A DNA stretch of 64,000 nucleotides, taken from NCBI GenBank assembly GCA_030745875.1, contig JASLNT010000083.1:3501-67500 (forward strand), given 5' to 3'. Within the stretch, counting starts at the first letter, position 1. Every line of letters starts with the position of its first letter. Both the position numbers and the translations under genes were made by a program. This DNA comes from Phycisphaerae bacterium (GTDB lineage: Bacteria > Planctomycetota > Phycisphaerae > SM23-33). This document shows, piece by piece, positions 33,619-64,000 of this stretch. Below the pieces are notes generated by a model. The model made no database searches, was not told where the DNA came from, and worked only from the letters and a program-made list of their open reading frames with translations.

Positions 33619-34662
33619 CTAATCGGCGGCGTCATTTTTTCGCATCGCCAGCGCTCCGGTCGGACAAGCCTCCACGCATCGTGCCCCCGCTTTCTGAAGC
33701 GCTTGGGAAACATCTCTGTCCAACGCCGGCGCCACCTGGACGCCGAAGCCTCTGCCCACGAACGACAGTGCGTACTCTTCACCCTCCTGTGCGGTGATTC
33801 GCACACACAGACCGCAGCAGATGCACTTGCCCGGTTCGTAGATAACGTCGGGATGTTCGAGATTCTGCATGAATTCGCGGCGTTCGGTTCGGAAGTGTGC
33901 AGGTTTGGCTTGGTAGGCTTCGCTGTAGTCGCGGAGTCTGCAGTTGTCGGCTTTTCGGCAGTCGCAGTGCATGCAGCGTTCGGCTTCGGCGGCGGCTTCA
34001 GCGGGGGTGTATCCGGTGCTCGGATCTGCGGGGATTACTTGAGGATCAGGTGATATGCCCACCATGAAGCGCTCCAGTTCCGTTTCGGACAACTTGCCTA
34101 TGTGCACCGAGAAGCGGTGGGCCGCCGGGGCTTGGCTTGCCGTTTCGAGGTCGCCGGCGTGGGCTGCGACATATTTCAGCAGCAGGTCTATCGCGACGGG
34201 CTCATCCTGCCGTGCGCGGCGACACGCTCGCCGCGGTTTTGTCCCGTCAATGTCCGCCAGGCTTCCGGTAAGCAGCCCGGCTGCTGCGGCTGGATCGCCT
34301 GCGGCGATATGACGGATCACTGCGGGGATGTTCGCCTTGTTGGGATCGGCCATCTGGCAGGGGGCGATGCAGTCTCCAACATGGTCGCTGAGAAGCAGTT
34401 CGAGATTAGTCCGCCGCGCGACTTTCACCGCATCGCTGCTGGCGTCGATCCGCATGCCCTCGGCGACCAGGGTTGCGCATGCGGGTACGAGATTCTCGCG
34501 TCCGTCTACGGCGACTACGCAGACCATACACGATGTGCACGCCGGCACGTCGGGCAGAGAGCACATTGTGGGAATCTCGATCGCCAACTCGGCTGCGGCG
34601 TCTACTATGGTGGCGCCGTTGCGGACTTCGATCTCTCGGTTGTCTATGATCAGTTTCGGCAT
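33619..34662 (-). CDS. Fe-S protein, NuoG/HydA N-terminal-like ([2Fe-2S] plus [4Fe-4S]), no catalytic domain
   Basis: IPTMC..CTSCMVC..PAC; H..DCIAPC; ERCMHCDC..NCRL; KCICCGLC..CVEACPTGAL. Only 347 aa. Confidence 0.75.
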   Translation of the reverse strand: MPKLIIDNREIEVRNGATIVDAAAELAIEIPTMCSLPDVPACTSCMVCVVAVDGRENLVPACATLVAEGMRIDASSDAVKVARRTNLELLLSDHVGDCIAPCQMADPNKANIPAVIRHIAAGDPAAAAGLLTGSLADIDGTKPRRACRRARQDEPVAIDLLLKYVAAHAGDLETASQAPAAHRFSVHIGKLSETELERFMVGISPDPQVIPADPSTGYTPAEAAAEAERCMHCDCRKADNCRLRDYSEAYQAKPAHFRTERREFMQNLEHPDVIYEPGKCICCGLCVRITAQEGEEYALSFVGRGFGVQVAPALDRDVSQALQKAGARCVEACPTGALAMRKNDAAD

Positions 34663-34665
34663 GAC

Positions 34666-37020
34666 TTAGTCAATTCGTACTGCGTTTTCGGGGCAGATGG
34701 CTTTGCACGCATTGCAGCGGGTGCATTTTTCGGGATCTATCTCGTGTTTTCGGTAGGGTGTCATTCCAATTGCGTCCGACGGGCACTGCTGGGCGCACAA
34801 TGTGCATCCGATGCAATCGTCAGTGATCGAATAAGTTATTAGGGCCTTGCATCGTCCGGCGGGGCAGCGGCCCTCAAGATGCGCTTCGTATTCCTGGCGG
34901 AAATATTCCAGCGTCGACAGCACGGGGTTTGGCGCGGTCTTGCCCAGTCCGCAGAGGCTGCTCTTCTTCACGCTCCGGGCCAATTCCTCCAGGCGTTCGA
35001 GGTCTCCGTTGCGTCCGTGACCTTCGCACAGTCGGGTCAGGATATCGAGCATGCGGCGCGTTCCGATACGGCAGGGGGTGCACCGTCCGCACGACTGGTC
35101 CTGCGTGAACTCGAGGAAGTACCGCGTGATGTCGACCATGCAGTCCGAATTGTCGAGCACTACAAGTCCGCCGGAACCCATCATTGCGCCCACGCTTGTC
35201 AGGGCTTCGAAATCTACGGTCGTGTCGCTGAGCGTGCCCGGTACGCATCCGCCCGACGGACCGCCTATCTGGACGGCTTTGAATGTATTATCGCCCGCGA
35301 TGCCTCCGCCGATTTCATCGACTATTTCACCTATGGTTATGCCCATCGGCACTTCGATCAGCCCGCCCCGGGCGATCTTGCCCGCCAGCGAGAACACTTT
35401 TGTGCCCTTGGACGTCTCGGTGCCCATTTCGGCGAACGCGTCGGCCCCGTTGCGGATGATCCAGGGCACGGTGGCGAACGTTTCTGTGTTGTTGACGAGC
35501 GTGGGCTTGTCCCACAGACCGCTCTGGGCCGGGAAGGGCGGTCTGAGCACGGGCATGCCTCGCTTGCCCTCGATAGAAGCCAGCAACGCGGTCTCCTCAC
35601 CACAGACGAACGCTCCGGCGCCTTCCATTATCTTCAGGCTCAAGCTATGTCCGCTACCGAGAATGTCTTCGCCCAGCAGACCGCGCTCCATGCATGTGTC
35701 GATCGCCTGCTTCACGCGACGCACAGCCAGCGGATACTCCGCCCGAATATATAGATACCCCTCGTGGGCTCCGACCGTTCGTGAGGCGATTACCATTCCC
35801 TCAATCACTCGATACGGATACGATTCGAGAATCATCCGGTCCATGAACGCGCCCGGGTCGCCCTCGTCACCGTTGCAGACAATGTACTTGGTCGGGTTGT
35901 CCGTCTCGGCCACCAGTCGCCACTTCACTCCGGTGGGGAATCCGGCTCCGCCTCGACCGCGCAGTCCGCTGGCGATCACGGCGTCGATGGTCTCGGCGGG
36001 ATCGGCTTTGGCGAGAATCTGCTTCATCGCGTCGAAACCGCCGTGAGCGATATACTCTTCGATGTCCACCGGATTGATGTATCCGCAGCACTCGGTGGCG
36101 ATGTGTTTCTGTCGAGACAGGAAGTCGGTGACAGGCTTGTCGCGGGGATCTATGTACCTGCGATCCGCTGCGCCCCAGCCCTGATCGGTAAGCAGACTGT
36201 CCACACCATGACGGAGCGTTGCGGTAAGTCTTCCGAATATCCCGGTGGGCTTTATGTGTTTGCGGACGATCGCTTCGGCGTCCTGGGGATCGACTCTGTC
36301 GTACAAGTGCGATGTATTGTCGGGAGTTACTAACTCCACAAGCGGAGTCCGGTGACACATGCCGATGCACCCGACGGGCTTTATGACCGCTTTGGCGTGG
36401 TTTCTTTCGACCGCGTCGCTCATAGCGCGGTATATCTTTTCGCTGCCGCTGGCCACACAGCACGACCCCAGACCGATACGCACCTCCGTCATATCGTTGG
36501 CGACATCGATCCCGATCCCCGAACCGATTTCAGCCGGGTGTTTGTCCGCGGCCGCAAGGAAGTCCTGCAGCATCTTGGGGATGGTGTCGGTTGTGAGATG
36601 TCCGTAAGTCAGGTGATCGATCTGCACGGCCGGGGCGAGCGTGCAGCAGCCCAGACATGCGACTTTCTGCACGGTGAAAAGTTCGTCGGCGTCTGTGTCC
36701 TCACCGTCTGTCAGACCCAGGTGACGATCGAGCGCGTCGTGTATGTCCTGGGCTCCTTTCACGTGACACGCCGTTCCGTGGCATACGCCGATCATATGCT
36801 TGCCCACGGGCTTGTGGCGGAATTGAGTGTAGAAGGTCGATACGCCCGTGACCTGGGCGGGTGTGATGTCGGTGTTGTTGCAGAGGTATTCAAGTGCTTC
36901 GGGAGGCAGGTAGCGGTAGTGGGTCTGGATCGCCTGAAGAATAGCAATCACCGAGTCGGGACCACGCCCGATGCTCCCAATCGCTTCGTCCACGAATTTC
37001 AGGTCAACGTCCTGGCTCAC
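34666..37020 (-). CDS. Fused NuoE-like + thioredoxin-like [2Fe-2S] + NuoF/HydB-like NADH-binding flavoprotein with C-terminal 2x[4Fe-4S]
   Basis: CHGTACH/CLGCC; GRGGAGFP; GDEGDPGAFMDR; CGEETAL; GGPSGG; SCGRCTPCR; CIGCTLC and CTRCNAC. Confidence 0.88.
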   Translation of the reverse strand: MSQDVDLKFVDEAIGSIGRGPDSVIAILQAIQTHYRYLPPEALEYLCNNTDITPAQVTGVSTFYTQFRHKPVGKHMIGVCHGTACHVKGAQDIHDALDRHLGLTDGEDTDADELFTVQKVACLGCCTLAPAVQIDHLTYGHLTTDTIPKMLQDFLAAADKHPAEIGSGIGIDVANDMTEVRIGLGSCCVASGSEKIYRAMSDAVERNHAKAVIKPVGCIGMCHRTPLVELVTPDNTSHLYDRVDPQDAEAIVRKHIKPTGIFGRLTATLRHGVDSLLTDQGWGAADRRYIDPRDKPVTDFLSRQKHIATECCGYINPVDIEEYIAHGGFDAMKQILAKADPAETIDAVIASGLRGRGGAGFPTGVKWRLVAETDNPTKYIVCNGDEGDPGAFMDRMILESYPYRVIEGMVIASRTVGAHEGYLYIRAEYPLAVRRVKQAIDTCMERGLLGEDILGSGHSLSLKIMEGAGAFVCGEETALLASIEGKRGMPVLRPPFPAQSGLWDKPTLVNNTETFATVPWIIRNGADAFAEMGTETSKGTKVFSLAGKIARGGLIEVPMGITIGEIVDEIGGGIAGDNTFKAVQIGGPSGGCVPGTLSDTTVDFEALTSVGAMMGSGGLVVLDNSDCMVDITRYFLEFTQDQSCGRCTPCRIGTRRMLDILTRLCEGHGRNGDLERLEELARSVKKSSLCGLGKTAPNPVLSTLEYFRQEYEAHLEGRCPAGRCKALITYSITDDCIGCTLCAQQCPSDAIGMTPYRKHEIDPEKCTRCNACKAICPENAVRID

Positions 37021-38714
37021 TTGGTTTGTTCCTCAATGCAGTACAGATGCGTCTTGCCCCGAATGTACATCCTGCCCTCGGCAAACGCGGGAGACGTATC
37101 GCAAGCCTCTCCGAGGTCTGCTTTGCCCAGTTCCTTCAACTCGCGTCCCGTTCCCACGATATAGACCTTGCCTTTGCGACTGATCAGGTATATTCGATCG
37201 CCCGCCATTGCAGGCGACGCATAGAATGAAGCCTCGAAATCCTTGTGCCACAATCGCTTGCCAGTCTTGACGTCCAGGCACGAGAACTCGCCCTCAGACA
37301 TCATCCAAACCAGCTTTCCATCGGACAGCGGGCTGCACGTGTCGGGCAGAGATTCATCGAACTCCCACTCGACGTGCGTCTTGGTGACGTCGCCCTTGCC
37401 GTTGGGGCGGATGGCGGCGATTTTCGATGAGACGTTCGTTGCGAACACCAGTCCGGCTGCGTATATGGGCGATGGCCCGCCGTCACCGTCCAGGCAGTCG
37501 ACTCTCCAGATTTCCTTACCGTCTGCGGGATTGTAGGAGATGACAAATGGGTTGGCGCACGTGATGAGTTGATCTCCGGATTCGACCGGTGCGATAATTG
37601 GTGTCGGCCAGGACGAGCCGACGGGTCTTTTTGTCCGCCACAACTCCTCGCCCGTATCCGCATTCAAGCCGATCAGAACGCTGAGTTTGTCGTCTATATC
37701 ACCCTGGTCCAATTGTATTATCAGGTTCTTCTTCCAGAGCACAGGCGAGGACGCGTGTCCGTAGAAGTTGTCCGGCGTACCGATGTGTTTCCGCCATACG
37801 ATTTTTCCGAATACGTCCAGGCACGCCACGTCACCGTTGGCGAACATGACGAATATTCTGCTGTTTTCGGTGTCGATCACGGGCGTGGGTGCTGCGTATG
37901 TCGTATCGTCCTCCATCACGCCTTCGGGCACTTTCTGGCTCTTTTCCTTGTCTCCGGTGATCGATTTACGCCAGGTGATCTTGCCGGAAAGAGCGTCGAA
38001 ACAATAGACTTCGCGCGTCTTCTTGTTAGCTCCGGTAAGGAATACGCTGTTGTCCCATATGGCGGGGGAACTCTGCCCGTTAAGCGGTACGACCACTTTC
38101 CATGCGATGTTCACCCCTTCGACACCATCGAATGTCAGAGGTACGTCGGTGTAGGGCGATATCCCGCTGGCGCCAGGACCGCGGAAGCCCGGCCAGAGCC
38201 CTTTGGCTTGCGATCGAGTGGAGACTTTTCTGGTGAGTATCGGCACGGCCAGTGCGGTCGCCGTTAAAGCTATCGCAATCAAACCAATGCCAACACGCCC
38301 CAGGAGTCCGGAAAGCATGTCGTTGCCGCCTCTGGAGGCTCCTGTAGGCATCGGCGGCTTCTTGCGGGCGGAAATCGCCAATGCGGCGGATCCGGCGAAC
38401 AGGCTCGCTCCGACCAGAAGCAGCCACACTCCCGTCCTCAGTATCCTCCAGGTCCTGAAGAATTCCTTGCGGAGTGCGAGGTCCTCACGGCGGAGTTCAT
38501 CGATGATCGTCTGCGAAGTGGAATCGGCCGCCAACTCGTTGCGAAGCTGTTCCAGTCTCGGGTGGTTTGTTGGGTTGGAAGCTGCATTAATCCGCCATGA
38601 TCTGGCCAGCACGACCGCGACAAACAGCGTGAATGCTCCCGTTACTATGGCCGTTCCCAATGTAGCTCGCCGCCACATCACCGAGCTACTGCTGTTTGAT
38701 GCTGTGCGGTCCAT
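37017..38714 (-). CDS. Membrane-anchored PQQ-binding-like beta-propeller protein
   Basis: Three N-terminal TM helices, WPGFRG, repeated TG..W and SP motifs. ATG 38714 overlaps the upstream stop (TGATG). Confidence 0.8.
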   Translation of the reverse strand: MDRTASNSSSSVMWRRATLGTAIVTGAFTLFVAVVLARSWRINAASNPTNHPRLEQLRNELAADSTSQTIIDELRREDLALRKEFFRTWRILRTGVWLLLVGASLFAGSAALAISARKKPPMPTGASRGGNDMLSGLLGRVGIGLIAIALTATALAVPILTRKVSTRSQAKGLWPGFRGPGASGISPYTDVPLTFDGVEGVNIAWKVVVPLNGQSSPAIWDNSVFLTGANKKTREVYCFDALSGKITWRKSITGDKEKSQKVPEGVMEDDTTYAAPTPVIDTENSRIFVMFANGDVACLDVFGKIVWRKHIGTPDNFYGHASSPVLWKKNLIIQLDQGDIDDKLSVLIGLNADTGEELWRTKRPVGSSWPTPIIAPVESGDQLITCANPFVISYNPADGKEIWRVDCLDGDGGPSPIYAAGLVFATNVSSKIAAIRPNGKGDVTKTHVEWEFDESLPDTCSPLSDGKLVWMMSEGEFSCLDVKTGKRLWHKDFEASFYASPAMAGDRIYLISRKGKVYIVGTGRELKELGKADLGEACDTSPAFAEGRMYIRGKTHLYCIEEQTK

Positions 38715-40006
38715 CAGGAGTCTCCTCCATCCCGGGGCGGTCTGTTGCGCGGGTCTACGGGGCAGAATTCGAAGCATCTTCCACATGCGACGCACGAGGT
38801 CCTGTCGGCTTGATAGTCTTCTCGAGTTCTTCGGGTCGAAAGCGCGATGAGTTTCAGCGCGATGACAAGTCCTATGAACGCTCCGGCCCAGCCTCCGCCC
38901 CGTGCGACATTGCCCCGGATTTCTGCGGCTTCGGTGTCTAGTTCTTCGGTGGATCGCCCTGATTCTCTAAACGCTTGGCTGGCGTCGGTTGTGTCGGACA
39001 CTTCCCGCGCTTCTTCTCGCTTTATGCGTTCGGCCAGGCGGACTGTCGGATGCATTCTCGCCATGGACGGAGCCGTGTACACCATGATCCAGACGCTGCC
39101 GGCGACAATCAGTGGGGCCGCAACCAGCATGCACAGCAATCCAAGCATCCCTCGTTTGCGGTTCTCTGGGAGTTTGTCGATATTTGGCGCCTCTATGGCG
39201 CCGAACGGGCATGCATTTTCGCAGAGTCGGCATTTGATGCACTCGTCGGGTGTGATTGTAACGCGACGCCACGACAGCTTTGACGCCCAACCAAGCAGCA
39301 GTCCGTACGGACAGAGGAAGCGGCAGTACGGGCGACCTACGAACATGCTTATCACCAGGAAACACGCTCCAAGTATCAGCATGCCCGCCGGACCGTTCAG
39401 GCGGAACAACGCTATGAAAGGATCGTAGCGACAAATTACGTATGCGCTGCCCGTGGCCGCAAACAGTACGGCGAGCGCCAGGTAAACGCAGGGCAGTATT
39501 CCCAACGCGTGACGAAGCAATCCCGGCAGGCGAAACGGGCGGAAGAGAACGAGTTCCTGCATCGCGCCCAGCGGACATACCGACGCGCAGAACGCTCTAC
39601 CGAAGAACAGCGTGAATACTAGCGGAAGGATGAAGAATACAATCACCCCCAGCGATATTACGGCGGCGGGATTAAAGACCGCCTCGGCCATCGACTGGAT
39701 TGCTCCGATCGGGCAGACGCAGCCCTGTCGATAGAAGCCGAAGTAAACCAGTGAAGCGACGCACAGCATCCATATGCCTTTGCGACTGCGTAGCTTAAGT
39801 GCAAGGAATGCTGCGAGCGTGAGCGCAGCAGCCAGTATTGCGATATCCACAATTGGTGGGATTTCGTGCGTGATTTCCGGCATGGACGCAGGCGGCTGGA
39901 CGTAGTCCGAGCCCAGGTCCGGGGGCGGATACTTGAACGCTTCCTTGCCCGAGGCCCCGACAGCCGTCGACAGAAGCACCAGAATGCCGGCTGCGATGAG
40001 TCTCAA
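38714..40006 (-). CDS. Polytopic membrane Fe-S protein (NapH/NosR/RdxA-like)
   Basis: CVCPIG, FCASVCPLG and YCRFLCPYG motifs; CIKCRLCENACP and CVACGRCFEFCP. TTG start overlaps the upstream TGA. Confidence 0.82.
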   Translation of the reverse strand: MRLIAAGILVLLSTAVGASGKEAFKYPPPDLGSDYVQPPASMPEITHEIPPIVDIAILAAALTLAAFLALKLRSRKGIWMLCVASLVYFGFYRQGCVCPIGAIQSMAEAVFNPAAVISLGVIVFFILPLVFTLFFGRAFCASVCPLGAMQELVLFRPFRLPGLLRHALGILPCVYLALAVLFAATGSAYVICRYDPFIALFRLNGPAGMLILGACFLVISMFVGRPYCRFLCPYGLLLGWASKLSWRRVTITPDECIKCRLCENACPFGAIEAPNIDKLPENRKRGMLGLLCMLVAAPLIVAGSVWIMVYTAPSMARMHPTVRLAERIKREEAREVSDTTDASQAFRESGRSTEELDTEAAEIRGNVARGGGWAGAFIGLVIALKLIALSTRRTREDYQADRTSCVACGRCFEFCPVDPRNRPPRDGGDS

Positions 40007-40578
40007 GAGTTATGCTCCGGGCCTTGTTCCAGCCAGTATGGGTGTTGTGCGGGCCGCCGGACGAACGCCTGGGCCGGGCAGGCGGTGGCGATTGTGCATT
40101 CGTTACAGTTGGTGCAGCGGTCCTGGTCGACCTGGAGGAATAGCGAACCATTGCCCTCCTTGCAGCCTTTCACGCAGATTCCGCACCCCGTGCATCTAGC
40201 GGGATCTATAGTGTATTCATAGCTGTCCTCCACCACGTGCTCGCGGATAATCGCATCGGTGGGGCAGAGTTGGAATTCGACGCCGGCATGACTTCTTGCT
40301 CCGCTGGACCCGGATTTGTAGTATCCGAAACAGAAATTGCATCGTCCGCACTTGGCGAATTCGTGTGCGCATTTGACGGCTGACTCCATCAGCACGCAGT
40401 GCGTGGCGCAGTTTCCGCATGCGGTGCATTTTGTCGGATCTATCTGCCAGACCGATCGCCTGAGCGATACGCCTCTTGCCGCCGCTACCGCCAGAGCGCC
40501 CAGGCCCGCTACGCATACTCCGCGCGTAGTGGTCCGCAGGAAGTTTCTCCGGGTCAGCTTGTTATGTCCGTTACTCAT
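40003..40578 (-). CDS. Twin-arginine polyferredoxin (about 4x[4Fe-4S])
   Basis: TRRNFLR plus hydrophobic stretch; CTACGNCATHC, CGRCNFC, CTGCGICVKGC and CTNCNEC..ACP. Confidence 0.8.
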   Translation of the reverse strand: MSNGHNKLTRRNFLRTTTRGVCVAGLGALAVAAARGVSLRRSVWQIDPTKCTACGNCATHCVLMESAVKCAHEFAKCGRCNFCFGYYKSGSSGARSHAGVEFQLCPTDAIIREHVVEDSYEYTIDPARCTGCGICVKGCKEGNGSLFLQVDQDRCTNCNECTIATACPAQAFVRRPAQHPYWLEQGPEHNS

Positions 40579-40780
40579 TGTGTTGTTTAATGGCGGCTTG
40601 TGCTGCGGGAAGGTCGCATCGCCCAAGGAGCTTGCACGACCTGCAACCCGTCGATTCAGTACATTCGCGCGAAGCTGACCTGCCGGCCAGTATAATCGCT
40701 CCGCCTGCGATAGAGCCCAGGGCGGCGGTTCGCCCCAGGCCGCGGATGAATTCTCTACGCGTTGTAGTCGGGCGTGTCAC
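40571..40780 (-). CDS. Small twin-arginine Cys-rich protein
   Basis: TRREFIR plus TM segment and C-x6-C-x2-C-x5-C; overlaps both neighbouring genes. Confidence 0.65.
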   Translation of the reverse strand: MTRPTTTRREFIRGLGRTAALGSIAGGAIILAGRSASRECTESTGCRSCKLLGRCDLPAAQAAIKQHNE

Positions 40781-41817
40781 CTTGATGCTCCTGTAGTGGG
40801 GCGGGGCGCGATCTTGCGTTTGAATATCCTCAGCGTCTTCCTGATCGGGTCCAGCACCAGGATACGACCATTACGATCGACGGCGATGTCGGGCACGATG
40901 TTGGTGTCTTTGGGCTGATCGGTGAACTCGTTCGGACCAGCCGCTACGTTATTAAGCTTCCCTTCGGGGCTGTAGACCTTGACTCGTTGGAGAGTTTTTT
41001 CGTACGTTACGATGCTCCCGTCGCCCAGGACCGCTATAGCAGCCGGGTTGCAGCATCCGTAGAACTTGGTTATGTCGGATCCCTCTGAGCCCCAACTCTT
41101 CAGGATATCGCCATAGCTGTCGCGAACTTGCACCAGAGATCGCCCCGGGTCCACCGTTAGAAGTTCGCCTTTGCCTGTCAGTGCAACGTCAAGATGCGGA
41201 CTGGGTACGTTGAACCCGCTCATGAAAGCTCCAGAGTCGTCGCGCCCGTTCTTGTAGGTTCGCTCGCCAGTCTTGCGGTCGTATCGCATAATAACGCGGT
41301 TTCCGGCATCAGCGGCGTATACGTATTGGTCCGAGACCGCCAGCGACACCAGGTGGGCCTTATCGTTCAGCGTTTCCCACTGGGTCTGCTGTTTTCCGTC
41401 GGCGGTTACTACTGCGATGGTGTTCCTGGCCGCTACGTATATTGTTCCGCCCGTCGAGGCCAGGGCCTGCGGTGCAAACGGCAGGTCTGCTCGCCTGATC
41501 TCCTGTCCTTCGGGTGACAGGATTGCGATCGCCTTATCGCCTGCCAGACAGATATTTCCGTCGTCAAGCACGGTCAGGGCGACAGGTGAATCCATCCCCG
41601 TCGGGAAAGCTGGAAGCGACTCCTGCCATTTCACCAGCGACAGATCGAATTTCTTAAGCTTCTGGAAAGCCTTGTCGTAGTCTCGCCCCGTGCCAGCGCC
41701 ATTGTCGCCCGTCGGGTCCATTAGACTAAACGCCGCCCAAACCGCGATCCCCACCGCAGCCAGTACGGCCAGCGATATCAACAGATCGTTCATTTTGCGG
41801 TTGGGCTGTTCGGTCAT
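40777..41817 (-). CDS. Membrane-anchored NHL-repeat beta-propeller
   Basis: N-terminal TM helix; YAADAGNRVI, DIAVDRNGRILVLD and FYGCCNPAAIAV. Confidence 0.78.
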   Translation of the reverse strand: MTEQPNRKMNDLLISLAVLAAVGIAVWAAFSLMDPTGDNGAGTGRDYDKAFQKLKKFDLSLVKWQESLPAFPTGMDSPVALTVLDDGNICLAGDKAIAILSPEGQEIRRADLPFAPQALASTGGTIYVAARNTIAVVTADGKQQTQWETLNDKAHLVSLAVSDQYVYAADAGNRVIMRYDRKTGERTYKNGRDDSGAFMSGFNVPSPHLDVALTGKGELLTVDPGRSLVQVRDSYGDILKSWGSEGSDITKFYGCCNPAAIAVLGDGSIVTYEKTLQRVKVYSPEGKLNNVAAGPNEFTDQPKDTNIVPDIAVDRNGRILVLDPIRKTLRIFKRKIAPRPTTGASR

Positions 41818-43352
41818 GGTCGTTGTTTCGCGGGTGTCTTTGCAGGTTTCGGGGCGTTTGGATCACGCAGATCCAGGCAGAGCATTTTCGTAAGGTCTCG
41901 CAGGATCAGCCTCCCGTCGGCGATCGCCATTGGCGCCCATGCTTCGTGGCCATCAAACACTTGAGCTTTGGCCAGTTCCTTCCAGCCCGCCGGTGTCGCA
42001 CGGGCCATTGTCAGCATTCCCGTCTTCCCATCCAAAGCCAGTATCTTGCCGTCTGCTATCAGATACGGCCCGAGTTCAAACTTATTCTCAGGTCCGCTGG
42101 ACCAGAGTCGCACACCGTCGAGGTTCATGCATATCATCTGCTGCCTGGCTTGGCCTGCGTTATTGGTCAGCACTCCATAGAGATGCTTTTCGTACAGCAA
42201 GGGGGTCTGCTGGATCGAGCCGAATATACCCGGTCCGCGTCGGAACGCCTCAACTGCGATTGACTCGCCGTCATCGTTCTGCTTTATCTTGAGCATGAGG
42301 CATCCGGCTTTGTAAGCTGCACTGAGGAATATCTGTTCGTCGCCGATAATCACAGGCGAGGGCGACAGCGCCGGTGTGACCTGCCAGTCCTTGAATCTCC
42401 AGATTATCTTGCCGTCCTCGGCCGAAACACCCACTACGCCTCCGGTGGTGCAGTAGATGTACATTCTCGTGCCCCAGTGTTCAAGCGGCATGATCGACGA
42501 GTGGGTCATCAACAACTTGTCCGGATTAGGCGTTTCCCAGAGTATTTCACCGGTTTCACAGTCTCGGGCGAGCATTAGCGCCTTGGCTCCGCCGGGCGCC
42601 AGCACCGCCACCTTGCGCTGAATAGTCTTGTCGCCTTCTTCAACTTCAATCGTATCGATCAGCGGACATTGGGCGCTGTACCATTCAGGTATAACCGCGC
42701 CGTATTTCTTTACAAGGTCCATCGTCCAGATTGGCTTGCCGGTAACAGCGTTGAGGCAAAGGACGTGGCCTTTGGGGCCTATGGTTACAACGAAGCGGTC
42801 AGTGACAGCGGGCACGCTGCGAGACACGCCATGCGATCGGCGAATAGGGATATGGTACCATTGTCTCCATATCTCGCTTCCGTCGACCAGTGAAAGACAT
42901 CTCAGCAGGTCGCCTTTCTGTGATTCGTCGACAGGATCCTTCGTGCCGGCGGGTCGGCCTTCGTAGTAGTCCAGAACGTATACGCGCCCCTTATGGATAG
43001 CGGCTCCACCGTAGCCCTGCCCCAAATCCAGTGACCAGAGAACCTTCGGTCCGCCCGCAGGCCACGATTCGGCAAGCGGGGTCTCCTCGACGCTAACGCC
43101 ATCGAGGCTGGAATTGCGGAATTGCGGCCAGGAGCCTGTCATGCCCTCGGGAGCCTTGCCGACGCCAGGAGTGAACTTACCGGGCAAATCGACCTCAAAC
43201 ACCTTAACAGGCGGGGCGTCAAACTCCTCACGCAGCGATAGATCGTCCGGACCCGCCCCCGACAGCCAGGCATAGCAGACCGCTACCCCTGTAACAGCAA
43301 ACAGCAACGGTATCAGGATGGCTATATTGAACGCTCGCATTATTGTTCGCAT
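41814..43352 (-). CDS. PQQ-binding-like beta-propeller protein
   Basis: Signal/TM segment, WPQFRN, GPKVLW and WAPMAIADGRLILRD. Confidence 0.8.
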   Translation of the reverse strand: MRTIMRAFNIAILIPLLFAVTGVAVCYAWLSGAGPDDLSLREEFDAPPVKVFEVDLPGKFTPGVGKAPEGMTGSWPQFRNSSLDGVSVEETPLAESWPAGGPKVLWSLDLGQGYGGAAIHKGRVYVLDYYEGRPAGTKDPVDESQKGDLLRCLSLVDGSEIWRQWYHIPIRRSHGVSRSVPAVTDRFVVTIGPKGHVLCLNAVTGKPIWTMDLVKKYGAVIPEWYSAQCPLIDTIEVEEGDKTIQRKVAVLAPGGAKALMLARDCETGEILWETPNPDKLLMTHSSIMPLEHWGTRMYIYCTTGGVVGVSAEDGKIIWRFKDWQVTPALSPSPVIIGDEQIFLSAAYKAGCLMLKIKQNDDGESIAVEAFRRGPGIFGSIQQTPLLYEKHLYGVLTNNAGQARQQMICMNLDGVRLWSSGPENKFELGPYLIADGKILALDGKTGMLTMARATPAGWKELAKAQVFDGHEAWAPMAIADGRLILRDLTKMLCLDLRDPNAPKPAKTPAKQRP

Positions 43353-47362: not shown

Positions 47363-47378
47363 GTTATCTCGCAGGAAT

Positions 47379-50095: not shown

Positions 50096-50104
50096 ACAGG
50101 CCGC

Positions 50105-51583: not shown

Positions 51584-51700
51584 GCCTGATGACCTCGCGG
51601 TGGTTGTCAGACTATATAATACTCGCTTGAGTGCGAAGATGAAACGATCAAGACATCCGACTGGATGTTCTATCCCCCGATGTTAAGGCTGAGCGTGGGG

Positions 51701-52117: not shown

Positions 52118-52310
52118 TAGGCGTCCTCCGCTTGCTTCGACACGGCCTGTAATGCTTGTTCACTCCTGCTTTCATGCCCTGCGTCGACCCTGATATAGGC
52201 TTTATCGGCAAAAAAACGGGCCGGTGGAATTAGACAGTAAGATTTTTCCGAGTTTTTCAGTCGTTGATATTCTCAGATTTGGACAAGCGATGGCGCGAAC
52301 GAATGCAGAA

Positions 52311-52334
52311 CCGGGCGCGAAAAGTCGCGCCCGG
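52311..52334 (-). terminator. Putative terminator hairpin downstream of the Gfo/Idh/MocA pair
   Basis: Perfect 10-bp stem ccgggcgcga-aaag-tcgcgcccgg; weak U-tract. Confidence 0.45.
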
Positions 52335-52381
52335 CCGGGATTGCAGACTAACTTGGTTGAAAATGACGTGGATCTGGAGAT

Positions 52382-53689: not shown

Positions 53690-53726
53690 GATGAATCCTT
53701 TTGCTATGATTATGCTTTGTTTTTCG

Positions 53727-56538: not shown

Positions 56539-58308
56539 CTACTGATTTTCGGGTATGACGGCGCATTTGGCAAGAAATCTGTTCAACGCCGACACCGTGA
56601 ATATCCTCGGATACAACTCCTCGTAGTACCACAGCTTGGCGAAATACAGACCAATTGGCGCCGGCGGGAGCCTGGTTCCCTGCTCCGTATGTTCGACCAA
56701 CCACGCCGCGCCGTTCCTGACAGCGTCCGCCCCCGAACCGGAGCAAAGCAGAGCATCAACTGCTAGAGCGGTTTCTTCTATCGACGACTCGACCGATTTG
56801 TCACCTCCCCATCCGCCGTCATCGTTCTGTGCGGTGGTCAACCACTCGATTGCTCGGGCGATCATGTCGGAGGGTATTTCGACATCCGTCTGACTGAGCC
56901 CGGAAAGCACGCGAGCGGTTCCGTAGGTGGGGTTGGCCTGGTCGGGCGATTCCTCATTACCGAACCAGAGCGGGCGCCACGATCCGTTGTCACGCTGCTG
57001 GCCGGCGAGATACTCAACCGCTCGCGCTGATGCTCGTTTGATCTTGGCGGTCAGCTGGCGGTCGAAACTCCTCCGCCATACGCCCCATGCTCCCAGGGCG
57101 TGAGCGGTGATGTCCGGGCAACTGTGGTCGAACGGCAGTTTGCCCCATCCGCGACAGAACGTTGGTATCCCGCCGTCGCGATTCTGCAGATCGACCAGCC
57201 ACTTGGCGCCGGCCGCCGCTGCTTTGACGACTTCAGGCGCCTCGGGGGACAAGTTGTGCAGTGCTATCATGGCTCCGGCGGTGTCGTCGGCGTCGGGAAC
57301 CGCGCCGGATAGGGGGCTCCATGCCCATCCGCCGGGCGCCGCGTGCGTGTATGGGTGAACCGCCGTGTAATGCTGGTCCATAAGCCAGTCAGTGATGGTC
57401 CGGGTCTCTTCGTCGCCCAGAGGAGCTCCGATGCAGAGAGCGTTCACTGACAGCGTGGTCACCCACGTGGACAGGTTAGTGTCGATCGGCCATGAACCGT
57501 CCGGACGTACGGTTGATGTAAGGAAATCGACGCAGGATGTTGTCACGGGATGATCGTTCAGCCCAGCTGACGCCAGCGACATCGCCACGAACGAAGTAAT
57601 CGGCGCCGCTTCGAGGTACCCGCCGCCCATCGGTTGGATCGCTCGAAGCTTCTTCAGCGTGCGGTGGCGAGCGAGATGTCGAACCAGCCTTACCGCCGGG
57701 TTTCGCGACGGGCGATGGAAATGGCGCACCTGACCGATCGCTATCAGCGCCGGAAGGGCGTAGCTGACCACGGGCATTCCGAGGAAACTGAAGCTCTTAT
57801 GTGGAAGTGTCGCGAGTTCAAACGGGAGCGGTGGTACAAGGTCCCACGCTTCGGGTTCGTCGCCCAGGCGTCCGCCAATGGCGCACATAGTCAGGATTGG
57901 GGCGGCGAATGTTCGGTCGGCTCCGTAGATATCCGCCAGTGAGGCGGCGATTTGCTTCGGTTGGAGCGAGCCTATGCGGTCGGTCAGCCAGCTTTCTGCT
58001 CGCGCGATCACATCTGATGGCTCGACCTCGAGCGCCGACCAGACCAGCAGTGTCGTCGGAAGGTTGCTCTGGCTTTGTGGAGTATCGCCCCAGGCTCCGT
58101 CTTCATTCACATGGTCGACAAGCCATTTGCGTCCATTGGAGATCAACTGCCCGTGAGCATTGGGATCAACGCTTGCCAGGGCCCGCACTGCGGTGGCGGT
58201 CGATAGGGCGCTGCTTGACAGTTGTCCGGCCCATCCGCCGCTGGTCTCGCGCAATGCCATGAGTCCGTTTACGGCCGCCGCCAGTGTTGTCTTGACAGCC
58301 TCAATCAT
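56539..58308 (-). CDS. Squalene-hopene cyclase-like class II terpene cyclase
   Basis: Catalytic PDADDTA (DXDD), QW repeats (QNRDGG, QRDNGSW, QNDDGGWG), SCPDIT and YGT motifs. Confidence 0.8.
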   Translation of the reverse strand: MIEAVKTTLAAAVNGLMALRETSGGWAGQLSSSALSTATAVRALASVDPNAHGQLISNGRKWLVDHVNEDGAWGDTPQSQSNLPTTLLVWSALEVEPSDVIARAESWLTDRIGSLQPKQIAASLADIYGADRTFAAPILTMCAIGGRLGDEPEAWDLVPPLPFELATLPHKSFSFLGMPVVSYALPALIAIGQVRHFHRPSRNPAVRLVRHLARHRTLKKLRAIQPMGGGYLEAAPITSFVAMSLASAGLNDHPVTTSCVDFLTSTVRPDGSWPIDTNLSTWVTTLSVNALCIGAPLGDEETRTITDWLMDQHYTAVHPYTHAAPGGWAWSPLSGAVPDADDTAGAMIALHNLSPEAPEVVKAAAAGAKWLVDLQNRDGGIPTFCRGWGKLPFDHSCPDITAHALGAWGVWRRSFDRQLTAKIKRASARAVEYLAGQQRDNGSWRPLWFGNEESPDQANPTYGTARVLSGLSQTDVEIPSDMIARAIEWLTTAQNDDGGWGGDKSVESSIEETALAVDALLCSGSGADAVRNGAAWLVEHTEQGTRLPPAPIGLYFAKLWYYEELYPRIFTVSALNRFLAKCAVIPENQ

Positions 58309-59177
58309 TACGCCAGATTCCCCAACGCCAGCAGGCCGTAGAATGTGTATTCGCAGTCGAGTGTCTCATCCCCTTCGTGGCCCCGGAATCCGCCGCGGGA
58401 CGACCAGAGGGAGTCGCAGAAGTCCAGGCATCGCTGGCGGACATTGTCAAGATTCGCCCCGCAATGTTCCAATGCGTGCAGACTGACGGCCGTAGAAAGC
58501 AGATCCGCCATGGGCGCGCCGCCCCACGCTCCCATTCCTCCATCAGGTCCGATCTGTTCGGCAAGCCATGTGCAGGCGGCTTGGTTCGTTGGTTGCCCAA
58601 GATGTCGCAAGGTTGTCATCGCCGCCGCTGTAGCCGGGGCCGATGCGCCCGGAATCTCCGTGGAATTTCCAAATCCGCCTTCTGGCCTTTGGAGGTTCGC
58701 CAAAGCGTTCGCCATTGCATCAGGATCGCTCAATGCTGTTCCGATGTCCTGATATGCTCCCAACGCCAAGAAGCACCCGTACGCTGTGCCCGTAACTTGG
58801 GCGGGGCTTTCAGCATAGGCTCCGTCATCGCTGCGGTACGCTTCGATACGGCTGACTATGGCCTGGGCGTCTCCGGTTAGCCCCAGCGCCGCGCCGCATC
58901 GCACCAAGCACGCCATGTGCACCAAGTCCAGATCCGAGCCACCGCCGAACGACGCCATCCACGGTTCTACAGCGTCTTTCGGCAGGCGGGCGTCAAGTGC
59001 GATCAGAGACTCCAGGGCGAAGAGCGTGTAATAGAGGTCCGGTTGGTCCGCTCGTCCGCGGAATCCTCCCGCCGGAGTGAGTTGGCCGGTGACAAAGCTG
59101 ACGACCAGCGAGGTCGATTCACCCAGCAGATTCGCCGAGCGTTTTGCGGCTGTCAGCATTTCTTGACGGATCGTCAT
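58308..59177 (-). CDS. Prenyltransferase/squalene-oxidase repeat protein (single alpha/alpha barrel, GGTase-beta-like)
   Basis: Repeats GGFRGR..DLYYT, DGAY, QRPEGGFG and GGFRG..DCEYTFY; coupled to both neighbours. Confidence 0.78.
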   Translation of the reverse strand: MTIRQEMLTAAKRSANLLGESTSLVVSFVTGQLTPAGGFRGRADQPDLYYTLFALESLIALDARLPKDAVEPWMASFGGGSDLDLVHMACLVRCGAALGLTGDAQAIVSRIEAYRSDDGAYAESPAQVTGTAYGCFLALGAYQDIGTALSDPDAMANALANLQRPEGGFGNSTEIPGASAPATAAAMTTLRHLGQPTNQAACTWLAEQIGPDGGMGAWGGAPMADLLSTAVSLHALEHCGANLDNVRQRCLDFCDSLWSSRGGFRGHEGDETLDCEYTFYGLLALGNLA

Positions 59178-60741
59178 CGCAGCAGCTCATGATCTCGAAG
59201 TCGCAGAAGATCTTGCCCACCATCCGTCGCAGCAGCGCCTTGAGGTCTGAGTTGGTCAGAGAGTCGAGGCACTCGATGGCGGTCGTTTTGTATTGCTCGA
59301 GCAGGTCGGTTGCGGCCTGCAGGGGGGGCGTTTTGGCGGCGTCGGCCAGGGCATTGAGGATATTTGGGCACAAGTGCTCGTCCCGCGAATCGTCCGATGC
59401 CGTTAGATGATCGTCGATATCGTCGTGTATCTGATAGGCTATGCCCAACGCGCGGCTGAACTGGTGCAGTACGCCAGTGAGTTTGTCGTCCCCGCCGGCG
59501 CATATCGCGCCGATCTGGAGCGCTACGTCGAACGCCGGAGCCGTCTTTTGGGCGAATATCTCGATCACCTGCTCGGGCGTGAGTGTTATCGGATCGCGCG
59601 CCCAAACCAGTTCGGCGCCTTGACCGAGGCAGAGCGTTCTGTGACCCGCCGACGCCACCTGCATCATTCGTACTCGCTGACTGTCCGAAACGTCGGCTTC
59701 GGACAACAGGCGGTATCCCTCGCCGATCAGCAGGTCGCCTGCGTTGATCGCGATCTCCACACCGTGTTCTTCGTGGACGGTGGGGCGGCCGTAGCGGGTG
59801 GAGTCGTGGTCTTCAATATCGTCGTGGATCAGCGAAGCCTTGTGGAAACATTCGACTGCAACGCCCGACCAAGCCAATCCCTCGGGCAAATCACCAAGCG
59901 CGGCGCCCGTAATTGCCTGGTAAACTCCCGCAGCCAGGAAAGGTCTCCATCGCTTGCCGGAACCGGCCAGCCAGTTGTGGGCGATCTGTTCTGTGCGGTC
60001 GGTGGGGGCTCCCATCCGTGTTGAAAGCGCCTCGATGGTGAACCAGGAGTCAACTGTGTCCCGCAGTGATTGCAGGTCCTGTCGCGCCGATTCGCTTTCA
60101 CTCGAGCAGGTAATCGCCTCGTGGACCCAGGCGGTGTCAACTGTCGTGTCGCAGCAGCCGTCACCCAGTAGCGGAATCGCCAAGCCCGGTACGGCGCCGG
60201 ATTCCATGTAGGGGAAGACCTTCTCGAGCATAGACATGCAACTGACGCCAATGATCGCCTGGACCTGCCCGGATTCTATCAGGCTCATAACCACCGGCGA
60301 GCCCTCCGCCACCAGCATTGCATATCCGAGTTCTTCGGCCTCGTTCTGGAGTTCGGCGATATCGCATCGTCCGCAGCGGCTGCAGACCAGACCGATATCA
60401 TCAAGGTGACCTTCACAATCGTCAGAATGTCGCAGGCATTGCGGCAGCAGGAGTAGTCGGCGGTCGAAGGGTATGGATGCTACGGTGCTTCGCCATGTTG
60501 CGTTATGGATAAGGATCGCCAGGAAGTCGCGGTACTCGTCTTCCTGCTGCGTTTTTGCAAGCAGTTCATCGGCGCAACTGCGGAGTTGGTCGAGCGACAG
60601 GGGTGCGGTGAGTTTTCGCTCGACAGCAAAATCATCAGCCGCCTGTCGCAAAACATTGCGCACAGCCTTCCGCAAAGGGACAGCGCGACCCACATCGCCC
60701 GGGCCGCTACTCTGCATCGATCTGTCAGCCGAATCATGCAT
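59119..60741 (-). CDS. DUF116-like Cys-rich domain fused to a trans-polyprenyl diphosphate synthase
   Basis: LLLPQCLR..C..CSRCGRC..GVSC..GCCDT, then GKRWRP, SLIHDDIED..RYG (FARM), GQ..E, KT and YQIHDDIDD (SARM). Confidence 0.85.
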   Translation of the reverse strand: MHDSADRSMQSSGPGDVGRAVPLRKAVRNVLRQAADDFAVERKLTAPLSLDQLRSCADELLAKTQQEDEYRDFLAILIHNATWRSTVASIPFDRRLLLLPQCLRHSDDCEGHLDDIGLVCSRCGRCDIAELQNEAEELGYAMLVAEGSPVVMSLIESGQVQAIIGVSCMSMLEKVFPYMESGAVPGLAIPLLGDGCCDTTVDTAWVHEAITCSSESESARQDLQSLRDTVDSWFTIEALSTRMGAPTDRTEQIAHNWLAGSGKRWRPFLAAGVYQAITGAALGDLPEGLAWSGVAVECFHKASLIHDDIEDHDSTRYGRPTVHEEHGVEIAINAGDLLIGEGYRLLSEADVSDSQRVRMMQVASAGHRTLCLGQGAELVWARDPITLTPEQVIEIFAQKTAPAFDVALQIGAICAGGDDKLTGVLHQFSRALGIAYQIHDDIDDHLTASDDSRDEHLCPNILNALADAAKTPPLQAATDLLEQYKTTAIECLDSLTNSDLKALLRRMVGKIFCDFEIMSCCDDDPSRNADSRKTLGESAG

Positions 60742-63389: not shown

Positions 63390-63999
63390 CTGTGTTGGAT
63401 TCCTCGTCATTGTTTTCGCTCTGGGTGTTGCACGAGCATCCGGGCGCTTGGCATTGCGAAGCGCGGTCGCAAATCTTGCGAAGTTCATCGGGCGACATCG
63501 CCGCGAGCACTTCAGGCGGGACTCCCAGGCGGTCGGCCGGATCAACCGGTGGGGGCGTCGCGTCGTCATCTCGTGTGGGCGAGAATCGTTGACCGGCGGA
63601 CCGCTTGCGAAGGCGGTCGTAGACATCGCCCCGCTTGAGGGCGTCGAGGTCAACGGCTGGACCATTGGAATCCTCGGGCACATCATCGCCGTCGATCGGG
63701 GCCTGATCGTATTTTGGGAAGATAATTGCGGATTTCGGGCAGATTCTGGCGCAGGCGGGACATAGATTCTTGCACGCGGCGGGTTTGGATACGATGGCCT
63801 TCTTGTCGGGCGAGAGCGTGAACGTTCCGAACAGGCAGAAGTTCAGACACTGGAGACAATCAACGCATCTGTCGCGATCGATTACCGGGAACCATGGCGG
63901 CCAATCGGTGTCGTGGACGACTGTGTCGATCTGGTTTTCGGCGCCGTCCGGGGCGGGCTCCGCGTTTAGGGCGGCGAGGATGTCCTGTGCGTTTAGGCG
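63379..63999 (-). CDS. Ferredoxin-domain protein, 2x[4Fe-4S] (5'-truncated by the window edge)
   Basis: Manual translation upstream of the listed ORF gives WFPVIDRDRCVDCLQCLNFCLFG...CKNLCPACARICPKSAIIFPKY; the frame is open to the window end. Confidence 0.82.
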   Translation of the reverse strand, partial: RLNAQDILAALNAEPAPDGAENQIDTVVHDTDWPPWFPVIDRDRCVDCLQCLNFCLFGTFTLSPDKKAIVSKPAACKNLCPACARICPKSAIIFPKYDQAPIDGDDVPEDSNGPAVDLDALKRGDVYDRLRKRSAGQRFSPTRDDDATPPPVDPADRLGVPPEVLAAMSPDELRKICDRASQCQAPGCSCNTQSENNDEESNTDAD

Positions 64000-64000
64000 G

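Follow-up and report, generated by a model that had tools for sequence, protein, structure and literature searches.

A five-gene cassette around an 'SHC-like' cyclase recurs beside an ABC exporter and a putative iron-sulfur electron route in Planctomycetota and a second phylum

We analyzed a 64,000-nucleotide (nt) stretch of the genome of a marine Phycisphaerae bacterium (assembly GCA_030745875.1, contig JASLNT010000083.1, positions 3,501 to 67,500; hereafter the window), in which genes for isoprenoid synthesis and cyclization lie near genes for an ATP-binding cassette (ABC) exporter and a chain of iron-sulfur proteins. A first-pass annotation, made from the letters alone, had proposed 18 co-oriented minus-strand genes in two blocks, and all 18 were confirmed by listing the open reading frames (ORFs) and by family scans (Table 1). 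Block A comprises seven minus-strand genes from 55090 to beyond the window end. Block B comprises 11 minus-strand genes at 33619-48557, with 4-nt start/stop overlaps at six of its ten junctions. Its start had been placed at 48542; the gene concerned, which encodes a PQQ_2 propeller, is real, and its longest ORF starts at 48557. The gene for a 69-amino acid (aa) Cys protein with a twin-arginine translocation (Tat) signal fell under the initial ORF length cut-off and was found in a later ORF listing.

The conserved core of block A, hereafter module A, consists of a ferredoxin, a radical SAM enzyme, a fusion of DUF116 with a polyprenyl synthase, a single-toroid protein and a DxDD cyclase of the 'SHC-like' type (SHC, squalene-hopene cyclase). 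Block B, hereafter module B, appears to have two parts, namely a MacB/LolD-type ABC extractor and an eight-gene iron-sulfur wire that would lead from NADH to the periplasm. The 6.5-kb spacer between the blocks holds genes for a GDSL/S9 hydrolase (plus strand), a sulfatase, an N_methyl protein and two Tat GFO/IDH/MocA oxidoreductases. Because these five unrelated genes intervene, one of them on the plus strand, A and B do not form a single operon in this genome.

Table 1. Genes of blocks A and B and of the spacer between them, with positions in the window
Gene	Product	Position	Strand	Family match
A07	ferredoxin-like, 301 aa	63379..64000, on to window-equivalent 64284	-	Pfam Fer4_10/Fer4_6/Fer4_9
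A06	radical SAM enzyme	61842..~63389	-	PF04055 8.5e-09
A05	Zn-ribbon and transmembrane protein, 329 aa	60856..61845	-	no Pfam family
A04	DUF116::trans-polyprenyl diphosphate synthase fusion	59119..60741	-	PF01976 1.2e-34, PF00348 3.3e-39
A03	stand-alone alpha/alpha-toroid protein, 289 aa	58308..59177	-	PF00432 2.3e-12
A02	class II terpenoid cyclase, 589 aa, DADD	56539..58308	-	PF13243 1.1e-40, PF13249
A01	URO-D/MtaA-like protein, 472 aa	55090..56508	-	PF01208 1e-22
	spacer genes, outside the system	48608..55061	mixed	Pfam matches
B10	exported BamB-like PQQ_2 propeller of eight-blade type, 392 aa, signal peptide (prop392)	47379..48557	-	PF13570 5.9e-78, PF13360
B09	LolD/MacB-type ABC ATPase	46664..47392	-	PF00005
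B08	duplicated FtsX-type permease, 1098 aa	43371..46667	-	PF02687, two stretches
B07	membrane-anchored PQQ_2 propeller, 512 aa (prop512)	41814..43352	-	PF13360 3.7e-17
B06	N-terminally anchored six-blade NHL propeller	40777..41817	-	PF01436
	small Tat-signal 4-Cys protein, 69 aa	40571..40780	-	ORF and sequence
B05	Tat-exported 16-Cys polyferredoxin	40003..40578	-	Fer4 families
B04	NapH/NosH-like membrane iron-sulfur protein	38714..40006	-	PF12801, two matches, 7.3e-16
B03	PQQ_2 propeller behind N-terminal transmembrane helices, 592 aa (prop592)	37017..38795	-	PF13360 1.4e-24
B02	NuoE-NuoF-2x[4Fe-4S] fusion	34666..37020	-	PF01257, PF01512, PF10589
B01	NuoG-N/NfnA-N-like Fe-S subunit, 347 aa	33619..34662	-	PF13510

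The cyclase A02 carries its DADD motif at residues 339-342, and D339, D341 and D342 were invariant in 11 aligned cyclase sequences. A02 scored 113.7 bits against the TIGR01507 hopene cyclase model (cut-off, 431.1 bits) and 117.1 bits against TIGR01787 (cut-off, 322.7 bits). Canonical SHCs of other Phycisphaerae matched it only at residues ~240-580, in the C-terminal half, at 30-38% identity. Full-length matches, at 47-55% identity, came from Verrucomicrobiota, Planctomycetia, Acidobacteriota, Hydrogenedentota, Sumerlaeota and Lentisphaerae. Neither a squalene/phytoene synthase gene (PF00494; Sqs/HpnC/HpnD) nor a second cyclase was found in the bacterium's own genome (G000), which is 89.5% complete; as a control, 8 of 14 reference genomes gave a match in the same PF00494 search. 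The HpnH, HpnG and HpnN models were unmatched by any block A or B protein (no genome-wide search for HpnH was made). Further, an MMPL protein encoded at 25422-27764 scored 53.3 bits against the HpnN model, the cut-off of which is 751.85.

Cyclases of this kind have been described as 'SHC-like' or of unknown function; according to the available parts of two papers, they keep the catalytic residues, their precursor is probably not squalene, and no function has been demonstrated (PMC7306690, PMC12414744). The same parts give a length of 550-700 aa and an occurrence in bacteria of the Planctomycetota-Verrucomicrobiota-Chlamydiota (PVC) group, Acidobacteriota and others (PMC12414744), and refer for the non-squalene context to figure S10 of the supplement (PMC7306690, Santana-Molina et al., 2020). 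A02, at 589 aa, lies within this length range, and it fits the published clade, an assignment made by taxon range, length and context. A review of Planctomycetota leaves the cyclase unmentioned. Block A had been presented as undescribed; this does not hold for the cyclase clade, already published as function-unknown in the available parts of those papers. Of the coupling of A to B our literature search found no description. In four genomes the cyclase orthologues are 703-807-aa frames that match in two to four pieces (G039:C15, G119:C11, G077:C61, G019:C195), which suggests large insertions within the cyclase.

Both domains of the A04 fusion were present in all 120 homologues listed. When 25 sequences were aligned, the DDxxD motifs and seven DUF116 Cys, including CxxCxxC, were invariant. 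The residues at -5/-4 before the first DDxxD of the synthase, positions that enter into rules for chain length, are small (Ala-Ser). An AlphaFold2 model of DUF116 (predicted local distance difference test score, pLDDT, 82.6) gave nothing at E <= 0.001 in a fold search of the PDB, and the best match was to the B12-binding parts of methionine synthase (E 4.5e-3, template modelling score 0.24). Among the papers listed in our literature search, none gave a lead on the function of DUF116, and those that mention the term most often deal with VPS13. The A03 toroid has the prenyltransferase/SHC-repeat fold, without a DxDD motif or an invariant Cys. Its gene always adjoins that of the fusion or the cyclase or, in an interleaved form described below, directly precedes the ABC genes. 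A sequence search of the PDB with A03 matched only artificial repeat proteins, and a structure search of the Atlas returned same-family clusters only. In one genome the string runs fusion, toroid and prop392 without the cyclase (G055:C5, G055:C23), and the cyclase lies on another contig.

The ferredoxin-like A07 has an N-terminal domain that matches no family, followed by a 2x[4Fe-4S] domain. In relatives its gene precedes that of the radical SAM enzyme, and in some genomes it is split into genes for a 118-133-aa protein and a ferredoxin. A06 has a B12-binding-like N-terminal part and is ~515 aa long from M100. Its longest ORF has 614 aa and reaches 63686, and homologues align only from about residue 107 of that ORF (query start, 107-112). 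Two models matched A06, both under their cut-offs (TIGR04013-like, 4.1e-21; MiaB-like, 6.3e-10). Elsewhere the radical SAM slot is occupied by a 395-396-aa SPASM/NirJ-like enzyme without BLASTP similarity to A06, for example at L024:4672-5862 (minus), L025:9565-10755 (plus) and L009:10895-12082 (plus); this swap is a non-orthologous replacement at a fixed position.

In the exporter part of module B, the B09 ATPase scored 260.4 bits against LolD (cut-off, 307.75 bits) and 227.7 bits against MacB. The permease B08, which has 97 residues invariant among 14 orthologues, gave an ADOP-like match (1.5e-12) and by family match belongs to the type VII/MacB-LolC-like class of mechanotransmission ABC permeases. 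B10 is syntenic with the ABC genes in relatives. Family scans of the locus proteins revealed no MacA/TolC-type adaptor or partner.

The redox core of module B begins with B07, the position of which is conserved in relatives. The NHL protein B06 carries an F-x-GCCNP motif, and GCCNP was invariant in 21 sequences. The AlphaFold2 model of B06 (pLDDT 87.1) has an N-terminal helix at residues 7-32, and its neighbours in the PDB were generic NHL domains only. The 69-aa Tat protein has the motif C-x5-C-x2-C-x5-C and matched no family; in 12 of the 14 relatives checked, the NHL and ferredoxin genes likewise have a small Cys ORF with an RR motif between them. B05 is NapG/MauM-like, with an RR motif and 16 Cys invariant in 19 sequences, a Cys count consistent with 4x[4Fe-4S]; its likely start is M17 of the 207-aa ORF, as M17 was invariant in 19 sequences. 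In B04, two CX3CP motifs (GRxFCxxVCPLG and RPYCRxLCPYG) and two Cys4 [4Fe-4S] motifs were conserved among 17 sequences. Scores against the named subfamily models were 42.7 bits for napH (cut-off, 213.05) and 19.1 bits for mauM_napG (cut-off, 178.85). Neither a NapAB, NosZ nor MauAB terminal enzyme was found in the cluster, and the partners of these proteins are instead the PQQ_2 and NHL propellers and the 69-aa Tat protein. A complex prediction for the NHL periplasmic domain and the Tat polyferredoxin scored 0.03 against a mark of 0.32 and is given no weight here.

On the cytoplasmic side of the putative wire, B02 had its best PDB matches among chains of electron-bifurcating enzymes (9bov_B, 2.9e-215; 9n5u_B, NfnB, 4e-208; 8oh5_B, 3.3e-204) and is a NADH-FMN subunit of the HydB/NfnB type as found in Bfu-family enzymes. 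B01 matched the N-terminal part of PRK12814 (1e-52); its alignment to NfnA/StnC-type chains, which are 963-1178 aa long, covered no more than their residues ~6-175 and 584-699. It has 347 aa here and 512-663 aa in most relatives, and is without a large catalytic or NADPH-binding part. In two genomes (G046 and G009), the NapH-like protein (Fer4_5) and NuoE (2Fe-2S_thioredx) are encoded by a single 552-aa ORF, and in G057 the NapH-like protein and a PQQ_2 propeller share a 1001-aa ORF (L019:13437-15095, minus; L038:10362-12020, plus; L035:10594-13599, minus). Assembly or frameshift artefacts remain possible for these fusions, of which NapH-like::NuoE was seen twice independently. These natural fusions argue for one complex made up of the flavoprotein, the NapH-like conduit and the propeller.

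Searches of the bacterium's own genome, 89.5% complete as stated, gave no match to MenA or MqnA, and the sole MenD match was under the family cut-off. It is thus probable that this genome lacks the quinol donor on which NapGH modules normally draw. The genome has three UbiA-family genes, so that an absence of all quinones is not proven. Our literature search found no paper on a NapH/NuoEF system of Phycisphaerae.

To follow the two modules across the class, we used the NapH-like protein, the cyclase and the fusion as queries against 121 genomes. The 34 genomes with the fusion were also the 34 with the cyclase, and a strong NapH-like match was found in 44. Both modules were present in 31 genomes, A only in 3, B only in 13 and neither in 74. 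The markers shared a contig in 12 relatives; ten of these loci, chosen because both markers shared a contig, were examined, and all ten contained one A+B gene string. The commonest order was ferredoxin, radical SAM, fusion, toroid, cyclase, prop392, ABC, FtsX, prop512, NHL, Tat ferredoxin, NapH-like, prop592, NuoEF and NuoG-like. After 14 further A-locus flanks had been added for the adjacency tally, the modules were adjacent in 17 of the 31 genomes with both, separate in 6 (G104, G028, G062, G038, G001 and G019) and undecidable in 8, where contigs ended.

Adjacency took at least seven arrangements in 11 Planctomycetota families: A>ABC>core, core>A, interleaved, A>core>ABC, head-to-head, fusion>core and the split form of the window. 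A full A>B string also occurred outside the class (G291). The cyclase alone stood before B in three genomes (G394, G275 and G126), the B core preceded A in two (G217 and G168), and A was followed by the B core and then the ABC genes in G125. In the interleaved form (G319, likewise G012 and G022) the toroid gene lay between those of the fusion and the ABC exporter; the modules were head-to-head in G353, and the fusion directly preceded the B core in G046.

Further, we examined 301 Planctomycetota genomes with an alignment of the NHL marker (A2; E <= 1e-60) and one of the cyclase (A1; E <= 1e-80). The NHL marker was found in 43 genomes and the cyclase in 76; 34 had both, 9 had B only and 42 had A only. 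Module A was thus present in 34/43 B-bearing genomes versus 42/258 B-lacking genomes. A second phylum was reached via a Victivallales locus and sampled with 201 genomes, of which 13 had the NHL marker, 19 the cyclase and 10 both, the markers lying within 6 kb of each other in 4 of these 10. Here, A was present in 10/13 B-bearing versus 9/188 B-lacking genomes. The cyclase gene adjoined the FtsX permease gene in L120 (Victivallales) and prop512 in L118 (Lentisphaerae). The odds ratios were 59 (class), 19 (Planctomycetota) and 66 (second phylum), values that are uncorrected for relatedness and hence overstated. The expectation that A and B would be contiguous in other anaerobes was thus strongly borne out, and the contrary outcome that had been envisaged, independent distributions without co-occurrence, did not materialize.

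A collection of species genomes yielded at least 577 stretches matching the cyclase, 80 of which were examined. The fusion-toroid-cyclase string was present in 44/80 loci, and the order ferredoxin, radical SAM, fusion, toroid, cyclase recurred in 44/80, from Planctomycetota, Verrucomicrobiota, Acidobacteriota, Hydrogenedentota and others. Clear B genes flanked the cyclase in 8/80 (L050, L057, L060, L071, L074, L075, L118 and L120).

The comparison also clarified which window genes belong to the modules. The URO-D-like and Zn-ribbon proteins (A01 and A05) had been counted as parts of the system; we found their genes only in genus g1 and rejected them as core. With A05, tblastn gave matches only in G104 and L042, close relatives, and A01 was missing from the 10 syntenic relatives and present in G104 and L042. 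An Opp-type ABC importer is encoded upstream of block A. The URO-D-like, Zn-ribbon, Opp importer and spacer genes were absent from 10/10 loci and occurred only in the sister genome G104 and the close relative L042; they are lineage-specific insertions of genus g1, and the window shows, in split form, a layout that was contiguous in the ancestor. We also rejected the importer, together with two unknown genes upstream of block A, as system parts. Weak URO-D-like homologues (24-29% identity) are encoded beside the cluster in the unrelated L067, G217:C11 (~16505-16930) and G208:C110 (~15622-16236), so the URO-D-like gene of the window may be an accessory that recurs and not there by chance alone.

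Without a functional tie, it would be difficult to account for a proximity that has outlasted many different rearrangements. The tie between A and B appears to lie at the level of product or exporter, because it is the cyclase or the toroid that abuts B, and the neighbours on the B side are often the ABC genes. The first-pass annotation had joined both blocks in one pathway, which is too strong, as A and B each also occur alone. Since each does, the modules are autonomous and their partnership is facultative. We propose two autonomous, genetically coupled modules in which the lipid made by A would be a client of the extractor and the wire of B, a reading that we hold to be about evenly balanced between right and wrong.

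According to this proposal, module A would build a regular, head-to-tail polyprenyl chain, which would be cyclized via protonation and then tailored by radical and Fe-S chemistry to give a cyclic isoprenoid lipid not derived from squalene. The ABC machine and the BamB-like propeller may extract this lipid and deliver it either to the membrane's outer face or as far as the outer membrane. The eight-gene wire would be heme-free and apparently quinone-independent: a Bfu-type NADH flavoprotein, formed by the NuoEF fusion and the NuoG-N-like subunit, would dock on the NapH-like membrane Fe-S protein, which would pass electrons to the two Tat-exported Cys proteins and these to the membrane-anchored propellers, including the NHL protein with its invariant vicinal Cys-Cys. 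There the wire could carry out reductive chemistry, on the lipid or alongside it, and re-oxidize NADH in a quinone-less fermentative anaerobe. What we observed is which genes are present, that their order is conserved, that the modules co-occur, which catalytic motifs and fusions the proteins have, and that genes for squalene and menaquinone are lacking; that a lipid is made and exported, with redox chemistry outside the cytoplasm, is what we infer, and the product and its chain length, the acceptor of the electrons and the direction in which they flow, and the lipid as cargo of the exporter are likewise putative.

Several findings weigh against a lipid of A as client of B. B occurs without A in 9/43 and 3/13 genomes, including a complete one-contig genome (G044; other examples are G018, G043, G076, G081 and G082). 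Only some B-only genomes have a canonical SHC, and most of those in the class sample show none. It follows that the wire cannot depend on this lipid. Conversely, A occurs without B in 42/76 and 9/19 genomes, and it stands alone in most of the Verrucomicrobiota, Acidobacteriota and Planctomycetia carriers among the 80 loci. In the window the modules are separate transcription units 6.5 kb apart, and in G104, a sister genome, three different contigs carry them. The co-occurrence counts are inflated by shared ancestry. Further, the propellers have no conserved metal- or cofactor-binding residues except the NHL Cys-Cys. A plain cyclized polyprenoid would be expected to have no redox-active group, which leaves a reduction of the lipid by the wire unexplained. 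Finally, a search of sequencing runs with this sequence returned no RNA run, the eight listed being 'DNA?' runs of seawater metagenomes.

Alternatively, A and B could be functionally independent neighbours, with A making a membrane lipid for reasons of its own and B serving as a general envelope redox and export machine, for example as a NADH sink onto a periplasmic acceptor or in envelope maintenance. Their proximity would then reflect shared ancestry, envelope co-regulation or inertia of genome organization, with no shared substrate. Both modules stand alone in many genomes, and in the window and G104 they are broken apart without a sign of decay, which is as this explanation would have it. 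However, proximity survives at least seven rearrangements, 11 families and the passage to a second phylum, the enrichment of A among B-bearing genomes is strong in both phyla (34/43 versus 42/258; 10/13 versus 9/188), and the interleaved toroid and the lone cyclase beside B are not readily explained by inertia. We therefore regard independent neighbours as possible but unlikely. The least credible alternative, to which we give almost no weight, is an ordinary hopanoid locus built on an SHC, with the other hpn genes elsewhere. Although A02 has the N- and C-terminal SHC Pfam domains and a DxDD motif, its hopene cyclase score (113.7 versus 431.1 bits), its partial match to canonical SHCs against full-length matches in several phyla, and the constant position of its gene next to a polyprenyl synthase gene speak against this. 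The outcome foreseen at the outset as fatal to the proposal, an ordinary SHC with hpn genes elsewhere, was thus not what the hopene cyclase score and the search for PF00494 genes returned, and we rejected the ordinary SHC reading on the model score and on finding neither a PF00494 gene nor a second cyclase in the genome.

Two further explanations would also tie A to B, by other means. The link could be one of electron supply, in which the Bfu flavoprotein bifurcates the electrons of NADH, sending a high-potential branch through the NapH-like protein to the periplasm and a low-potential branch through the ferredoxin of A to the radical SAM enzyme and DUF116. In its favour, the solved structures closest to B02 and B01 are subunits of the electron-bifurcating Nfn/Stn and HydABC enzymes, a ferredoxin of its own is always part of A together with a radical SAM enzyme dependent on low-potential electrons, and in core>A forms the NuoG-like gene is followed by one propeller gene and then the ferredoxin gene. 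However, in G394, G275, G126 and L118 the gene next to B is that of the cyclase or the toroid, and those of the ferredoxin and the radical SAM enzyme are not with it; A works without B in most carriers; and bifurcation is itself putative, with B01 lacking the part that holds the second nucleotide site of Nfn/Stn. We consider this explanation improbable. Alternatively, B could require the lipid of A as a membrane carrier or as a terpenoid attached to a protein, for instance at the NHL Cys-Cys. This would suit the rarity of B without A and the frequency of A without B, a genome apparently without menaquinone genes, the invariant GCCNP motif, and the toroid fold family PF00432, which is of the protein-prenyltransferase-beta type. 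However, some genomes with B alone are complete or ~99% complete (G044, G018 and G043), and a cyclized polyprenoid is not redox-active. Protein prenyltransferases have Cys at their Zn site. The toroid has no invariant Cys and hence lacks these Zn-site Cys; further, the NHL domain is exported, whereas the enzymes of A have no signal peptide. A lipid cofactor or anchor thus seems to us highly improbable.

A bolder version of the two-module proposal has A and B work as a single machine that spans the envelope of anaerobes without quinones. The electrons of NADH would be split by a flavoprotein of the Bfu type, and one branch would pass via a NapH-type Fe-S conduit to exported propellers acting on, or together with, a polycyclic regular polyprenoid made by A and delivered by the MacB-type pump. 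We think this distinctly unlikely. The cytoplasmic clusters of NapH-family proteins are regarded as a puzzle; if there were one such machine, these proteins would gain a quinone-independent role that explains the clusters, and the product of the orphan 'SHC-like' cyclases would be identified. This product could be the tricyclopolyprenol-type precursor that, according to the available part of one paper, has long been proposed for the 'orphan' tricyclic terpane biomarkers (PMC9247107).

We compared both modules with known systems. Like the published 'SHC-like' clade, as far as the available parts of the two papers describe it, A02 is a two-domain SHC-type cyclase with its catalytic residues kept, a PVC/Acidobacteriota range and a non-squalene context; in those parts, the cyclase is dealt with by itself (Santana-Molina et al., 2020, PMC7306690; Mol Biol Evol 2025, PMC12414744). 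Here, in contrast, it sits in a five-gene Fe-S/radical SAM cassette that is coupled to an exporter and a putative wire in Planctomycetota and a second phylum. The hopanoid pathway comprises Sqs/HpnCDE, Shc, the radical SAM enzyme HpnH and the resistance-nodulation-division (RND) exporter HpnN. Its logic is the same, in that a class II cyclase is combined with a radical SAM enzyme for tailoring and with an exporter dedicated to bringing the lipid to the outer membrane, but no squalene synthase was found in our genome, and the precursor would come from the adjacent trans-polyprenyl synthase. Further, the exporter here is of the MacB/LolC-type ABC class instead of RND, and the Fe-S wire is without a counterpart in hopanoid loci. 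The sporulenol or C35 sesquarterpene pathway of Bacillus consists of HepST, YtpB and SqhC. SqhC is mentioned in the available parts of PMC12414744 and PMC7306690. That pathway likewise uses an SHC-family cyclase on the product of a regular head-to-tail polyprenyl diphosphate synthase and not on squalene; however, we found no YtpB-type class I step at this locus, the cyclase clade differs, and the Bacillus pathway is without the DUF116 Fe-S domain, stand-alone toroid, ferredoxin and radical SAM enzyme that are all present here.

The wire shares with NapGH, NosGH and MauMN a NapH-type protein (two CX3CP, two [4Fe-4S]) and a Tat-exported 16-Cys polyferredoxin. It differs in that the scores lie far under the cut-offs (42.7 versus 213.05; 19.1 versus 178.85), no menaquinone genes were found in the genome, the donor is apparently a NADH flavoprotein, fused to the NapH-like protein in two genomes, and cofactor-less-looking propellers take the place of a NapA/NosZ/MauA-type terminal enzyme. 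With the Bfu enzymes NfnABC/StnABC and with HydABC (PDB 9bov, 9n5u, 8oh5 and 7q4v), the likeness is that B02 aligns nearly full length to NfnB/HydB chains and B01 to the N-terminal Fe-S part of NfnA/StnC. However, B01 is without the GltD-like NADPH-binding and catalytic part, and a membrane conduit and exported proteins would replace the soluble catalytic subunit. The type VII ABC systems LolCDE, MacB and DevBCA act on lipoproteins or lipids at the outer leaflet. Module B resembles them in its LolD/MacB-like ATPase and in FtsX-type permease domains with large periplasmic loops, but both FtsX halves are in one 1098-aa protein, a BamB-like propeller gene stands in place of a MacA/TolC-type partner, and the LolD score is under the cut-off.

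The 'SHC-like' cyclases are a published open problem, in that the clade occurs in cultured bacteria and has no known substrate or product in the available parts of PMC12414744 and PMC7306690. The present locus supplies a defined five-gene set around this orphan cyclase, and a clue, namely that in anaerobic Planctomycetota and a second phylum this set is linked with an ABC extractor of the lipid type and with a putative NADH-driven, heme-free and apparently quinone-free periplasmic electron route. Further, the NapH::NuoE fusions point to a direct input of NADH electrons into a NapH-family conduit, which no paper found in our search describes. If the product is a cyclized regular polyprenoid, it bears on the source of the orphan terpane biomarkers. 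These ideas are testable because cultured carriers exist, at least one of both modules, which lie far from each other in its genome (strain of L066/G408), and one of A only (L100).

We made some further observations around the modules. An extra PQQ_2 propeller gene, the product of which is 23-30% identical to prop512, often lies directly upstream of the module A ferredoxin gene (G063, G070, G055, G036, G103, G089, G125 and others), even without an adjacent B. Outside Phycisphaerae, the cassette is often flanked by genes for a CobW-like GTPase, a class V aminotransferase (cysteine-desulfurase-like), a GcvH-like protein and a thioredoxin (L053:3662-4807, L053:11875-13023, L063:3210-3680 and L045:12343-12882), which hints at sulfur or Fe-S chemistry. 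A 562-aa protein encoded upstream of the Opp importer (L002:9673-11361, minus) gave a weak AMMECR1/AmmeMemoRadiSam-A-like match (1.1e-06, far under the cut-off). At the other end of the window, a 2519-aa open frame (3-7562, plus) runs off the window start and matches no Pfam family at E <= 1e-5. Finally, the minus-strand genes at 19698-29780, downstream of block B, encode MlaF-like and MlaD/MCE-like proteins, a 780-aa MMPL-family RND transporter, a PpiC/SurA-like isomerase, RnfC, RnfD and a ZnuA-like binding protein, and are thus envelope/lipid-traffic and energy genes.

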